Below, in pieces: positions 8,896 through 35,519 of a stretch of 64,000 nt of DNA (position 1 is its first letter; the number at the start of each line of letters is the position of its first letter). The translations under genes and the position numbers were made by a program. The notes beneath the pieces are model-generated. The model was not told where the DNA came from. It searched no databases and was given only the letters and a program-made list of their open reading frames with translations. The stretch is from Octopus vulgaris (taxonomy: Eukaryota): NCBI GenBank assembly GCA_951406725.2, contig OX597841.1, positions 11,966,001 to 12,030,000 of the forward strand, written 5' to 3'.

Positions 8896-9093
8896 GATGG
8901 GCTTCTTTTAGTTTCCATCTACCACATCCACTTGCAAGGCTTGGACCAACTCAAGGATATATAAGAAGACACTTGTCCGAGGTGGCATGCAGTGGGACTG
9001 AACCTGGAATCACGCAGTTGGAAAGCAAACACATCAGGAACCACAGGGACCCCACATGCACTCTCCCGTTTACTTACTCAAAATCTGACTCAC

Positions 9094-9237
9094 CATGGGC
9101 CCATAACCGGAATGGGCGCGAGCCCGGTGCACACTGGCTCGCTCTTTCTCGGCCGCAGTTCTCTGCACTGTCTGGAAATTATTCAAAGCATCGCTGAACT
9201 CGGAACGCAGTCGTTCATTCTGCATCTTACGCTGACG
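9094..9237 (-). CDS. STX7/STX12: Syntaxin-7/12-like, coding exon 5 (Habc helix c)
   Basis: ttttgcag acceptor, gtgagt donor, 144 nt, phase 0 to 0; RQRKMQNERLRSEFSDALNNFQTVQRTAAEKERASVHRARAHSGYGPM. Confidence 0.93.
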
Positions 9238-9402
9238 CTGCAAAAGAAGGAACGGAACATTACTGGGAGATAAATAAATAATCGCAAGTGGCAGTGAGGC
9301 GGGGGGGAGGTGTTGATGCATTTTCCCCCCCATCACCCAGGAAACAAATATAAAAAAAAAACAACAACAAACCACCACCACAAGAATCGCAATAACAAAT
9401 AC

Positions 9403-9619
9403 ACTCTTTACTCTTTTACTTGTTTCAGTCATTTGACTGCGGCCATGCTGGAGCACCGCCTTTTTAGTTGAGTAACTCGACTCCGGGACTTATTCTTTTG
9501 TAAGCCTAGTACTTATTCTATCGGTCTCTTTTGCTGAGCCGCTAAGTGACGGGGGACATAAACACACCAGCATCGGTTGTCAAGAAATGCTAGGGGGACA
9601 AACACAGTCACACAAACAT

Positions 9620-10749: not shown

Positions 10750-10753
<4 letters not shown>

Positions 10754-10909
10754 ATCAAAATAAGCAACAAGAATGACTCCGGCAATTTGGTACGATCGTT
10801 TCGTACTACATCATTTTATTAAATGTTGTAAGTATTACAAGAGTTTTAAAATACTGAGCACTCATCAGCCAAATTACCGGAGTCATTCTTGTTGCTTATT
10901 TTGATTATA
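10750..10909 (-). ncRNA. Minimal type I hammerhead ribozyme motif, family A (element extends to about 11007)
   Basis: Minus strand: CUGAUGA (10868-10862), helix II GUGCU/AGUAC, GAAAC-GAUC-GUA with predicted cut at 10791/10790. Helix I is a 41-bp inverted repeat (10750-10790 with 10869-10909). Confidence 0.8.
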
Positions 10910-11029
10910 ATCACCCCACGGATTTTTATGGATAACACCATACAGAATTCTGGTGCATCTAAATTAAGTACCATATTCATTTGAATCTAAATTTTTGCTG
11001 GACTTATACATATATATATATATATATAT

Positions 11030-11295
11030 ATTAAATTAGAGATAAAACCGCTATTAGGCAAATCATACAGTGAAAATCATAAACCAATACTAAAATTCAA
11101 AATATTTAAATTTAAAGTTAAAATTTAAAAATTATTTAAATTAATAATTTATACTTATATATATAACTTTAAATTTAAATAATTTAAATTTTGAATTTTA
11201 TATTTTATATATTTTTTATTAATTTTATTTCTATGTATTGGTTTATGATTTTCACTGTTTGATTTGCCTAATAGTGGTTTTATCTCTAATTTAAT
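11030..11295. repeat. Nested AT-rich inverted repeat inside a (TA)n tract
   Basis: Outer arms about 11030-11090 and 11235-11295; inner arms about 11091-11120 and 11164-11200. Confidence 0.8.
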
Positions 11296-11370
11296 ATATA
11301 TATTTATACTATAAAATTAGATTTAATCCTAAATCTAATTTTTCCATGTAAGTTTGGATTTACTCCCTAA

Positions 11371-11412
<42 letters not shown>

Positions 11413-11601
11413 TGACAGGCTTCTTTCAGTTTCCATCTACAAAATTCACTCATAAGGTTTTGGTTAATCCAAGGCTATAGTAGAAGGTATTTGCCCAAGG
11501 TGCTACACAGTAGGACTGAACCCAAAACCATGTGGTTGGGAAGCAAGCTTCTTACCACACAGCCACACCTGCGCCCATACATAGAAGAAGAGTTTGGTTA
11601 C

Positions 11602-11701
11602 CTGGTCAGATGCAGAGGCTGGTTGCGGGAAGTGAGCCAGTTCTTTGAGGTAAGAAGTTGTTTCTTTTGCCAGTTGGTTGGTGTAATGTTGGATCTCATG
11701 C
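11602..11701 (-). CDS. STX7/STX12: Syntaxin-7/12-like, coding exon 4
   Basis: tttcag acceptor, gtaacc donor, 100 nt, phase 2 to 0; HEIQHYTNQLAKETTSYLKELAHFPQPASASDQ. TNQLAKET is shared with vertebrate STX7 and STX12. Confidence 0.94.
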
Positions 11702-12288
11702 CTGAAACACAACGCAATTAACAGTGGCATTAATTAATGAATTCATCGTTAATTACTGCGGGGACAATAACCATGCTGCTATCTATCTTTTATTGGTTTC
11801 ATCATTAGGTGTGTGGCCAGGCTGGGGCAGCACACTGAGGAATTTTAGTTGAATGAATTGACCTCAGAACTTATTTTAGGGCATTAAGTTCGTTGATTGA
11901 CGCTAGATGTAGGCTATTGTCACGCGACCATCACCCAACAGGTCAATCTGTATTTCCACTGACGACATTCACAAAAGCAGAAACACTTGCAGTTATCTGA
12001 CCTGCTTACTCAGTCAATGTCAGCTAATTATTTACTCATATTGAAAACTGGTGATAAACACAATAAAAATATGTTTTAGCTCCACATAAGTGCCAACTAC
12101 AAGAGTGAAACGCAGGAAGACCTAGGATGAAGCCCTGAAGACCAATCTCAAGACATTGAGCCTTACCAAGGAGATGACTAAGGACCGAGATATCTGGTGC
12201 CTTGCTGTAGTCAAGAAGACCTGACCACCACTGCAGAATTGCTACTGGTGCCACATAGATAGCACCCGGTGCATTCTGTGGAGTGGTT

Positions 12289-23645: not shown

Positions 23646-24007
23646 ATCATCATCATTTAACGTCCGTTTTCCATGTTGGCATGAGTTGGACAGTTTCACT
23701 GGGGTCTGGCAAGCCAGGAGGCCACAACAGGCTCCAATTTGATTCGGTAGTGTTTCTAAAGCTGGATGCCCTTCCTAATCCCAACCAATTGGGGAGTGTG
23801 GTGGGTGCTTTTTACTCGCCACCGCCACATGGGCCAGGCAGGGCAGGGGGAGTGGCATCGACCATGTTCGGATAGTGCTTTTTACATGCCAGTGGCACGG
23901 ACACCAATCAGACAGCACTGACATCAGCCAATATATGTATGTGTGTGTATGTGTATATATATATATATATAAAAAATAATGCTGATGATTATATATATAT
24001 ATCAAAA

Positions 24008-24100
24008 ATAATTGCTGATGATTGCTCAGCATTTTAAAACTGTTGTAATACTTACAACATTTAATAAAATATGTAGCGTGAAACGATCGTACCGAATTAC
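24008..24100 (+). ncRNA. Hammerhead motif, family A, copy 2 (degenerate; element to about 24230)
   Basis: CUGAUGA 24015-24021 and GAAAC-GAUC-GUA 24080-24091; helix II closing pair and helix I have decayed. Confidence 0.6.
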
Positions 24101-24234
24101 CGAAGTTATTCTTGTTGCTTATTTTTTATTATAATCACCCATGGATTTATATGGATAACACCATACAAAATTCTGGTGCATCTAACTTAAGTACCATATT
24201 CATTTGAATCTAAATTTTGCTGAACTTATATATA

Positions 24235-24758
24235 TCTATCTATCTCTCTATCCACTCAGTCAAAGTCAACCCTCGGTTACTCATTGGATCAGTGTCCTCC
24301 AGTCAGTTCTATCCTGGGTCGCTTCTTTCAGATTGGCTATGTCCATTCCGGTATCACTCCTGATGGTGTCAAGCCAGCAGGTTCTTGGTCGGCCTCTTCC
24401 TCTCTTGCCACTGACCATTCCGAGCATGATGTCCTTCTCCAGGGATTTTCTCTGCATAATATGACCGAAATATGCCAATCTATGCTTGGTGATCCTAGCT
24501 TCTAGCAACATTTTCGGCCTTATCTGCTTAAGAACTTCTCCATTGGTCGGCCTCTTCCTCTCTTGCCACTGACCATTCCAAGCATGATGTCCTTCTCCAG
24601 GAATTTTCTCCGCATAATATGACCGAAATATGCCAATCTATGCTTGGTGATCCTAGCTTCTAGCAACATTTTCGGCCTGATCTGCTTAAGAACTTCTCCA
24701 TTGGTGAGCCTCGCTGTCCATGGAATCTGTAAAAGTCTTCTCCAACACCAAAGCTCGA
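24235..24758 (-). mobile_element. RTE-clade LINE 3' fragment with internal duplication
   Basis: FELWCWRRLLQIPWTARLTN.EVL...LAYFGHIMRRK.LEKDIMLG...GRGRP; same family as 6626-7185, opposite orientation. Confidence 0.85.
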
Positions 24759-33225: not shown

Positions 33226-33461
33226 GAGTGAACTTCAGAGAAGGAAACTAAAAGAAGCCTATCGTATAATGTAAGGATGCATGCATGTATGTATGTACAC
33301 ATGTGTGTGTGTATGGATGTATGTGTGTGTGTATGGATGTGTGTGTGTATGAGTGTTCCCTTGCTTGAAATCATAAGACAGAGCTGTAAACGAATGCCAC
33401 TGTTATGCAAGCAGTGTTCTTTGTATTCAGTCTTCTGTAGAAAACATGTCCGACCAGGCTG

Positions 33462-33720
33462 GGGGGTGGGGGAATATTTCCTTCTTTGGAAACAGGTGGA
33501 GGTGGGGGAATATTTCCTTATTTGGAAACAGGTGGGGTGGGGGAATATTTCGTTATTTGGAAACAGGCGGGGGTGGGGGATATTTCGTTATTTGGAAACA
33601 GGTGAGGGTGGGGGGAATATTTCCTTATTTGGAAACAGGTGGGGGTGGGGAAATATTTCCATATTTGGAAACAGGTGGGGATGGGGGAATATTTCCTTAT
33701 TTGGAAAACAGGTGGGGTTT
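33462..33720. repeat. G-rich minisatellite of about 32 bp
   Basis: About 8 copies of ggggaatatttccttatttggaaacaggtgggggt. Confidence 0.85.
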
Positions 33721-33916
33721 GGTTTAAAGGAAGGTCAACTTACTCATCTTAGAAAATGCATCTCAGCAAGTTCCGTCCAACCCATGAACGGATAGAAAAG
33801 CAGACGTTAAAATGGTGATGATGATGATGATGAGGAGGAGGAGGAGGATGACAAGAGAAAACAAACAAACAAACATAAAAAAAAAGAAGGCAATTAAAAG
33901 CATTAAAATAAGTTGT

Positions 33917-33922
33917 TTTATT
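33917..33922 (-). promoter_or_regulatory. Candidate polyadenylation signal of PDCD2
   Basis: AATAAA on the minus strand 5 nt after the stop codon, with U-rich sequence downstream. Confidence 0.55.
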
Positions 33923-33927
33923 TCATT

Positions 33928-34089
33928 TCAAGAGCATTTTGAGGAATAGTCCTGTTTCCATAGAAACTCCTGTACATATTTCACCCCAATGTCGCAGCTG
34001 TCAGCACAGGTATACACAGCCAGTGTTCCCCAGTCAAGACTGTCGTCCAAAAGATCAACACCAAGATGGGTCAGCAGTTGTGGCATCAC
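33928..34089 (-). CDS. PDCD2: Programmed cell death protein 2, last exon
   Basis: ttgtag acceptor, 162 nt ending TGA; [32 protein letters not shown]...EFLWKQD, the PDCD2_C signature. Confidence 0.94.
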
Positions 34090-34150
34090 CTACAAGAGAG
34101 CAAAGAAGACGTAGAGACACACAGACAACATAAGGATGAGCATGTGTGTG

Positions 34151-34203
<53 letters not shown>

Positions 34204-34426
34204 AGCTATATCTATATATATATATATATATATTTGAGTAGTTGAATGAATTATCTTGTTATGGATAATTCGATTAACCGATACCTGGGTAGCAAATTCA
34301 CATCAGAGAAGACACGGTTGAAGTTACGTGCCTAGGGCATAGATTACGTGCTTTCGTGTGGAAATTTGTATGTTTTTTTAAAAAATATAAATGTATGAAA
34401 GAATGGAGTTAAACGACGAATTAACA

Positions 34427-34531
34427 AAATTCCTTTATTTTCGACATATGTTTCGAAGGCTGCATATTCCTAATTGTGAAGGAATAAGGAGTATATTATG
34501 CCGCTTTCTCATCAGGAAAAGCAAGGAACTT
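34427..34531 (-). ncRNA. Type I hammerhead ribozyme motif, family F, left arm
   Basis: Minus strand CUGAUGA (34515-34509), helix II, GAAAC-AUAU-GUC with predicted cut at 34443/34442, helix I UUUUC/GAAAA plus extension. Confidence 0.8.
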
Positions 34532-34620
34532 ATGTCAACATCAAGATGCACAAAAAACTTCGCTATGGGCTCCGTGTGAGCAGTCATCTAAAAGTTTTTT
34601 GTGCATCTTGATGTTGACAT

Positions 34621-34725
34621 AAGTTCCTTGCTTTTCCTGATGAGAAAGCGGCATAATGTACTCCTTATTCCTTCGCAATTAGAAATATGCAGCCTTCGAA
34701 ACATATGTCGAAAATAAAGGAATTT
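34621..34725 (+). ncRNA. Type I hammerhead ribozyme motif, family F, right arm
   Basis: CUGAUGA 34637-34643; helix II GAAAGCGGCAUA/UAUGCAGCCUUC; GAAA 34698-34701; palindrome ACAUAUGU; GUC with predicted cut after 34709; helix I UUUUC/GAAAA plus AAGUUCCUU/AAGGAAUUU. Confidence 0.82.
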
Positions 34726-34762
34726 TGTTAATTCGTCGTTCAACTCCATTCTTTCATATATT

Positions 34763-34813
<51 letters not shown>

Positions 34814-35519
34814 TGTATAAGCCATGTACAAGGATGCTGTCAGTAAGGTGAGAGCTGGCAACAAGTATAGTGAAGAATTCTGGGTAGAGGTTGGGATCCA
34901 CTAATAATCAGTCCTCAGCCCCCTCTTATTCATCATAGTCCTCCAGGCAATAACATTTTTTCGGGCTCGATAAATTAAGTACCAGTGAAAAACTAGAGTC
35001 AATGTAATCGACCAGTCCTCTCTCATCAAATTTCAGACCTTGCACCTCCTGTAGAAAGGATTATTGTTATGCATGGGACACAAAACTCTACATGTGAAGA
35101 CCTGTTGAGGCAAGTGGAAATCAAAATCAAAATCGAAATTGATCAACATCAACGGAAATTGTAGCTGTGATACCAGTGCCGGTGGCACATAAGAGAACCA
35201 TCCGAACGTGGCCGTTGCCAGTGCCGGTGGCATGTAAAAAGCACCATCTGATTGTGGCCGTTTGCCAGCCTCGTCTGGCACCTGTGCCGGTGTCACGTAA
35301 AAAGCACCCACTACACTCACGGAGTGGTTGGTGTTAGGAAGGGCATCCAGCTGTAGAAACACTGCCAGATCAGACTGGGCCTGATGCAGCTTTCTGGCTT
35401 CCCAGACCCCAGTTGAACCGTCCAACCCATGCTAGCATGGAAAGCGGACGCTACACCATGATGATGATGATGATGATGTATGTATACACACACACACACA
35501 CATACATAAGCCAATATCT

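Follow-up and report, generated by a model that had tools for sequence, protein, structure and literature searches.

A palindrome in an intron of a PDCD2-family gene of Octopus vulgaris contains a hammerhead ribozyme motif in each of its two arms, which raises the question of whether the locus is a device of gene control, a replicating RNA fixed in DNA, or a piece of a mobile element. We addressed this question by a computational analysis of the window, the 64,000-nucleotide (64-kb) stretch of contig OX597841.1 in which the palindrome lies, and all positions below refer to its first letter. Our preferred reading, to which we give a probability of about 80%, is an ordinary non-autonomous Penelope-like (PLE, pLTR-type) insertion, composed of a head-to-head pair between (TA)n runs, with the ribozyme predicted to be a trapped passenger. 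In this most likely case the locus would be of little significance, as one more non-autonomous Penelope-type insertion; its geometry may shape the survival of such copies in introns or feed small-RNA silencing.

The 176-bp near-perfect inverted repeat of the original prediction was found by an inverted-repeat search (Table 1). Its arms are 97% complementary and, when aligned, differ at five positions, all of them transitions, with no indels. The predicted extent, 34385 to 34767, holds for the arms but not for the start of the insertion, which reaches ~150 nt further to the left. The plus-strand RNA was predicted to fold into one hairpin of -295 kcal/mol (z = -47.7; none of 100 shuffled sequences folded as well), and the minus-strand RNA into a hairpin of -294 kcal/mol. 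Within the spacer, segment 34564-34576, which adjoins the junction of the two copies, pairs with itself (6 of 6 pairs, including three wobble pairs). Rfam matches to miRNA precursors at the hairpin tip were below the gathering score, and we rejected a miRNA-precursor reading of the tip since any long stem gives such sub-threshold matches.

Table 1. Positions of the palindrome, the two repeat copies, the ribozyme cores and the surrounding gene within the window
Feature	Position	Strand	Remarks
Interrupted (TA)n run, left flank	34157..34232		runs 34157-34200 and 34213-34232
Long copy of repeat unit	34234..34560	-	left boundary inferred from TA run
Left arm of inverted repeat	34385..34560		176 nt; inverted-repeat search
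Type I hammerhead core, sense in PDCD2-family pre-mRNA	34443..34515	-	cut after C34443 predicted
Short copy of repeat unit	34560..34762	+	includes spacer; ends ~50 nt past predicted cut
Spacer, hairpin loop	34561..34591	+	31 nt; 5' part of right copy
Right arm of inverted repeat	34592..34767		176 nt; inverted-repeat search
Type I hammerhead core, right copy	34637..34709	+	cut after C34709 predicted; helices as in left core
(TA)n run, right flank	34763..34811		runs 34763-34778 and 34780-34811
Last coding exon, PDCD2-family gene	33928..34089	-	PF04194 positions 58-111 of 111, E 8e-11
Host intron	34090..36028	-	~1.94 kb, GT..AG, phase 0; splice sites from sequence
Preceding PDCD2_C exon	36029..36145	-	PF04194 positions 17-57, E 9.5e-12; 5' end approximate

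The proposed site in the last PDCD2 intron was borne out, as the intron lies between two exons encoding the PDCD2_C domain on the minus strand. The last exon contains the stop codon, with AATAAA just behind it. By sequence resemblance, the gene is probably PDCD2 rather than its paralogue PDCD2L; a PDB sequence search with the last exon gave no match at E up to 1. The arm end, expected ~300 nt before the last acceptor, was measured at 296 nt from it, and the predicted cut lies at 354 nt. Six further inverted pairs (160-441 nt, 80-88% alike) were found within 33900-40000, and the hammerhead palindrome is the tightest inverted pair of this region. The six pairs are made of a dispersed repeat, extend over 35518-39251 inside the span of the gene, and are further candidates for duplex RNA.

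Each arm had been described as a complete canonical hammerhead with a 12-bp helix II. The conserved core is indeed complete in both arms (C3-U4-G5-A6-N7-G8-A9, G12-A13-A14, A15.1-U16.1, H17), each with a GUC triplet, but helix II forms only 10 of the 12 pairs, with A.C and G.A mismatches, and loop II is 30 nt long. In either core, the open helix is helix I, which makes both motifs type I; it is built of 5 bp and 9 bp separated by a 2x2 loop. Helix III consists of 2 bp and a palindromic tetraloop. With one core per arm, a transcript of either strand contains one ribozyme and its antisense copy, as had been claimed. When both strands of the 64 kb were scanned with a relaxed type I pattern, three motifs emerged, two of which are the cores of the palindrome, and no second copy of its hammerhead family was found elsewhere in the window. 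Rfam gave no match at the gathering score over the 64 kb, and when E up to 10 was allowed it gave 20 matches, none of them a hammerhead, possibly owing to the 30-nt loop II.

The minimum-energy fold of an isolated arm is not the hammerhead but a structure better by 4-5 kcal/mol. A 2-bp helix III with a palindromic loop is of the dimer-favouring kind, and here its energy was calculated as -7.0 kcal/mol in a homodimer versus +2.4 kcal/mol in a hairpin; a second sense copy for such a ribozyme dimer is provided by neither strand of the locus. Monomer cleavage by a minimal PLE hammerhead was reported as not detectable (PMC4209133), while monomers with a 2-bp helix III can still be active, as the axolotl motif cleaves 22% in 1 h and the mussel repeat hammerhead cleaves at ~0.1 per min (PMC7229834).

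On both strands, the antisense arm is transcribed first. In PDCD2 pre-mRNA this order had been predicted to trap the ribozyme, and the folding calculations agree and extend the prediction to the opposite strand: for six prefixes reaching up to 20 nt past the cut, the mean pairing of the ribozyme bases to the upstream arm was 0.96-0.99 on both strands. Forcing the hammerhead fold cost 123 kcal/mol, and 101 kcal/mol when all 68 As of the antisense arm were read as G, a model that understates the effect of inosine. The ribozyme is therefore predicted by these models to stay trapped and inactive. Because trapping follows from the head-to-head geometry, it is not special to PDCD2, and since the antisense arm thereby precedes the ribozyme in transcripts of both strands, complete double copies would silence their own ribozymes and serve as templates for long duplex RNA. 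The consequence of an antisense arm coming first on both strands seems to be unremarked in the literature that we searched.

To define the element, public contig sets from three organisms and one raw-read run were matched to 34236-34772 at 85% likeness. The contig sets yielded 1265, 2179 and 1436 pieces of the family, with all 30 bins covered in each; counts of contig pieces and sums of depth are not copy numbers. The matching contigs have unlike flanks, as in a dispersed repeat with the hammerhead in its terminal repeat, and the hammerhead-bearing family is apparently present in many copies in this lineage, as judged from the contigs. In the raw-read DNA run (X22), a single read of 12.9 million matched, which is at odds with the contig sets and was taken as uninformative; the run shares its species label with the contig set of organism A, and a label or filter problem is possible. 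Two patterns of the family each gave no match in metagenome scans, and among the matches listed in a literature search on hammerheads and octopus there was no paper on such a family.

Contigs that join the supposed left flank to the left arm (34312-34398, 34313-34416 and 34346-34458) make the ~150 nt to the left of this arm a part of the repeat. Likewise, the spacer belongs to the right copy, because contigs with starts at 34559-34572 continue into the right arm (34559-34661, 34564-34675 and 34572-34700). In two runs, 34560 is the start of 7 and 13 contigs, whose AT-rich flanks are unlike, and the region of 34560 thus appears from these contigs to be a frequent natural 5' boundary of the family. 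The insertion as a whole would cover ~34234-34762, with its head-to-head copies between (TA)n runs. Its long copy is ~32 nt short at the 5' end and has ~150 nt of 3' sequence that the short copy lacks; the repeat unit was inferred to be ~360 nt. The TA run at 34157-34232 is the likely insertion target, and the TA runs would hide any target-site duplication. Pfam gave no match for any of six open reading frames of the element, and no reverse transcriptase (RT) or GIY-YIG domain was found in 251 open reading frames of the window (245 of 253 in low-repeat sequence, to which the search outside the element was confined, and these six of the element). The assignment to Penelope-like elements is incomplete, because no partner with RT and GIY-YIG is linked to the family.

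We then surveyed whether other copies of the family are palindromic as well. All 17 joints listed, of 20, run from an antisense piece into a sense piece, at variable break points, and no head-to-tail (tandem) joint is among them; 15 of the 17 come from a table of joints and two from a table of between-letters sequence. Among the 15 classified joints, the upstream part of the ribozyme is retained on the right side in five, on the left side in one and on both sides in one, and the two additional joints keep only the right ribozyme. Joint sides were 21-42 letters long at 85% likeness, which does not yield the fraction of inverted copies. On this sequence evidence, inversion recurs in the family, and the double-ribozyme form is a minority outcome. 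In another copy (contig runs X3 and X6), a symmetric head-to-head joint connects 34441 to 34711, so that its arms start just past the predicted cut, which might reflect reverse transcription of cleaved RNA. At the cut site and beyond it, the depth of the contigs shows a several-fold rise. Neither this rise nor the joint at 34711 is proof of cleavage, because depth is not copy number and diverged subfamilies share the 3' part.

Under the preferred reading of an ordinary PLE insertion, a Penelope-type reverse transcriptase/endonuclease acting in trans would have inserted the ~360-nt unit at a TA microsatellite, and self-priming or template switching near the 5' end of the unit would have added a second, inverted copy. 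Both break points would by chance have fallen upstream of the ribozyme, so that both cores survived, and the arms would later have drifted by five substitutions. In RNA of either strand, the antisense arm would come first and capture the ribozyme by base pairing during its synthesis. Splicing would remove the hairpin together with the intron, and some A-to-I editing might occur incidentally beforehand.

The original prediction had linked the palindrome to the inverted repeats of PLEs, and both the joints listed above and published inverted pLTRs agree with this link. Arkhipova and colleagues described pLTRs inverted head to head, with palindromes where they meet, and proposed self-priming (PMC3846280), and Craig and colleagues described inverted, 5'-truncated copies beside PLEs together with a bias to microsatellites, although the published (TA)n bias concerns Naiads, which are without canonical hammerheads (PMC8557442). 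Cervera and De la Pena (PMC4209133) reported dual hammerheads, one motif on each strand at a distance of 100-700 bp, which probably derive from truncated PLEs; theirs was the only paper found in a literature search for hammerhead pairs on opposite strands. Head-to-head PLE repeats and opposite-strand hammerhead pairs are thus already published, and the octopus locus adds an example with a clean junction. An anole element was reported to cut AT-rich DNA, its own hammerhead being dispensable in vitro (PMC11167929).

Among the closest known systems is Pen2/Pen2a of Adineta vaga (PMC3846280; scheme in PMC8557442). As far as these sources describe it, it shares with the octopus locus a head-to-head inverted repeat of ~180-200 bp in which one copy is shorter at its 5' end and one 3' end carries additional sequence, a small palindrome close to the junction, a hammerhead within the repeat and microsatellite flanks. 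The octopus locus differs in having no RT/GIY-YIG open reading frame attached and no visible target-site duplication, and its extra 3' sequence is ~150 nt, not a tail of 30-40 nt. The dual hammerheads of Schistosoma mansoni (PMC4209133) likewise consist of two type I motifs on opposite strands, the core starts being 122 nt apart in the octopus, and share a long helix II, a short helix I, the G10.1-C11.1 pair and a palindromic helix III. In contrast to the Schistosoma motifs as described there, helix III of the octopus motifs is 2 bp with a tetraloop, loop II is 30 nt, and no extra base stands between A9 and helix II. The available text of that paper presents the dual motifs as minimal hammerheads, and neither states their relative direction nor discusses duplex trapping. 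We also considered identity with animal non-LTR retrozymes, which have in common with the octopus family a non-coding unit of ~360 nt (350-390 bp in mussel), low GC, high copy number and a type I hammerhead with a 2-bp helix III (PMC7229834; bioRxiv 10.64898/2026.07.22.740005). Retrozymes are probably derived from Penelope, but in these accounts they are head-to-tail tandems that yield circular RNA, whereas the octopus units are head-to-head and the joints listed include no tandem one; we therefore rejected this identity.

A second hammerhead family in the window offers a comparison with the same layout, a head-to-head, TA-flanked pair at 10750-11017. This element is flanked by two Syntaxin_2 exons of a gene on the minus strand. 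The ribozyme, with its core from 10868 and a GUA triplet near 10791, has the sense orientation of this gene. The antisense piece of the element does not cover the ribozyme; the inversion instead gives a helix I of 41/41 bp, and the predicted gap to the hammerhead fold is 4.2 kcal/mol. By these folding figures, intronic cleavage would be more plausible for this element than for the palindrome in the PDCD2-family gene. A solo copy of the second family, TA-flanked and 88-91% alike, lies on the plus strand at ~24009-24239, and beside it, at 23982, is a short duplicated core start. The exons of the syntaxin gene (PF14523) are at 9073-9489 and 11506-11733 on the minus strand. Directly adjoining the element, at 11025-11300, is an AT-rich palindromic, MITE-like element of ~275 nt, 82% self-complementary, between TA runs.

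The best surviving alternative accepts the same origin, but the inversion would matter to the host, either by silencing the sense ribozyme in the intron or by a hairpin that feeds small RNAs silencing the family. If true, the head-to-head mode of insertion would act as an inherent safety catch through which retroelements with ribozymes can persist in introns. Long duplexes are substrates of Dicer and ADAR, and full trapping is predicted on the strand of the gene. Retrozymes were reported to be depleted in Xenopus introns after size normalisation, but 42-44% of them still overlap introns (bioRxiv 10.64898/2026.07.22.740005). Within the window, the element in the syntaxin gene, a single case, leaves an intronic sense ribozyme uncovered at a gap as small as that given above, and the six other inverted pairs around the PDCD2-family gene suggest that duplexes are common locally, although the palindrome is the tightest of them. 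Taken together, we consider a role for the host unlikely.

The original prediction had further suggested a self-silenced ribozyme whose activity depends on editing or unwinding. According to this idea, heavy A-to-I editing or a helicase would unlock the hammerhead, which would cut the last intron and tune the output of the PDCD2-family gene; an editing-gated ribozyme, if real, would couple that output to editing and represent gene control of a new kind. Octopuses belong to a group rich in A-to-I editing, the core is intact in the sense of the gene, and three A.C mismatches are present on the minus strand. None of the 40 family variants listed (two more exist) falls in the catalytic core, and two bring back pairing at the mismatches of helix II. 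This pattern is in keeping with a ribozyme of importance to the mobile family but has little statistical weight; the sparing of the core would, by our own rough estimate, arise by chance in about one case in three. The folding results do not favour unlocking, since a gap near 100 kcal/mol persisted after the A-to-G replacement, with the limit on inosine given above, and the density of editing needed to melt 176 bp would probably affect the five conserved As of the core as well. Even when freed, an arm prefers the non-hammerhead fold, and the short helix III favours a dimer for which there is no second sense copy. Intronic hammerhead cuts, moreover, need not stop splicing, slow cleavage being compatible with it (PMC2995048, citing Dye 2006 and Fong 2009). 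A literature search for an editing-linked palindromic ribozyme gave a single review, on an unrelated subject. The suggestion thus found no support, and we regard it as very unlikely.

An artefact of assembly or of fold-back reads would also produce a palindrome. No read or contig among those listed spans 34560: none of the 24 contig pieces listed (4922 more exist) bridges the junction of the palindrome itself, and the raw run contributed its one matching read. Furthermore, the A of the window at 34683 is missing from two of the three contig sets, although contigs drop rare variants. The arms, however, differ by five transitions and no indel, the mirroring is limited to 176 nt while the outer flanks differ, and the junction lies at a natural boundary of the family, with similar joints in three sets of short-read contigs. 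Of the five positions at which the arms differ, four carry a letter that is in the minority in the family, on the left arm in three cases and on the right in one; a compensating change was seen for none of the five. As read from the sequence, these differences fit drift after one insertion, and drift-like differences argue against a fold-back artefact, which we find barely credible. They give no sign of selection on the duplex, five changes being too few for a firm verdict on this point.

Finally, the palindrome had been proposed as an ambisense, viroid-like replication intermediate fixed in DNA. In avsunviroids and other ambisense circular RNAs, ribozymes of both polarities occur in one replicating circle, and the octopus locus resembles avsunviroids in its hammerhead on each polarity and its rod-like fold, but it consists of a DNA unit duplicated in inverse orientation, each strand having a single cut site. 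Although RNA-RNA replication was raised as a possibility for animal retrozymes (PMC7229834), this is the least probable of the readings, because with only one cut site per strand no unit-length RNA would be released, the rod is one unit duplicated rather than two different ribozymes in one circle, other copies have variable and mostly ribozyme-losing break points, and no head-to-tail joint is among the 17 listed of 20.

Two further repeats were noted near the PDCD2-family gene. A 36-nt minisatellite occupies 33460-33722, ~200 nt downstream of the stop codon. On the other side, at 41650-58240, a gap of 100 N precedes a telomeric repeat of the (CCCTAA)n type, several kb in length, with a long tandem array from ~48500 to 58240; this region is possibly an interstitial telomere or a mis-join.
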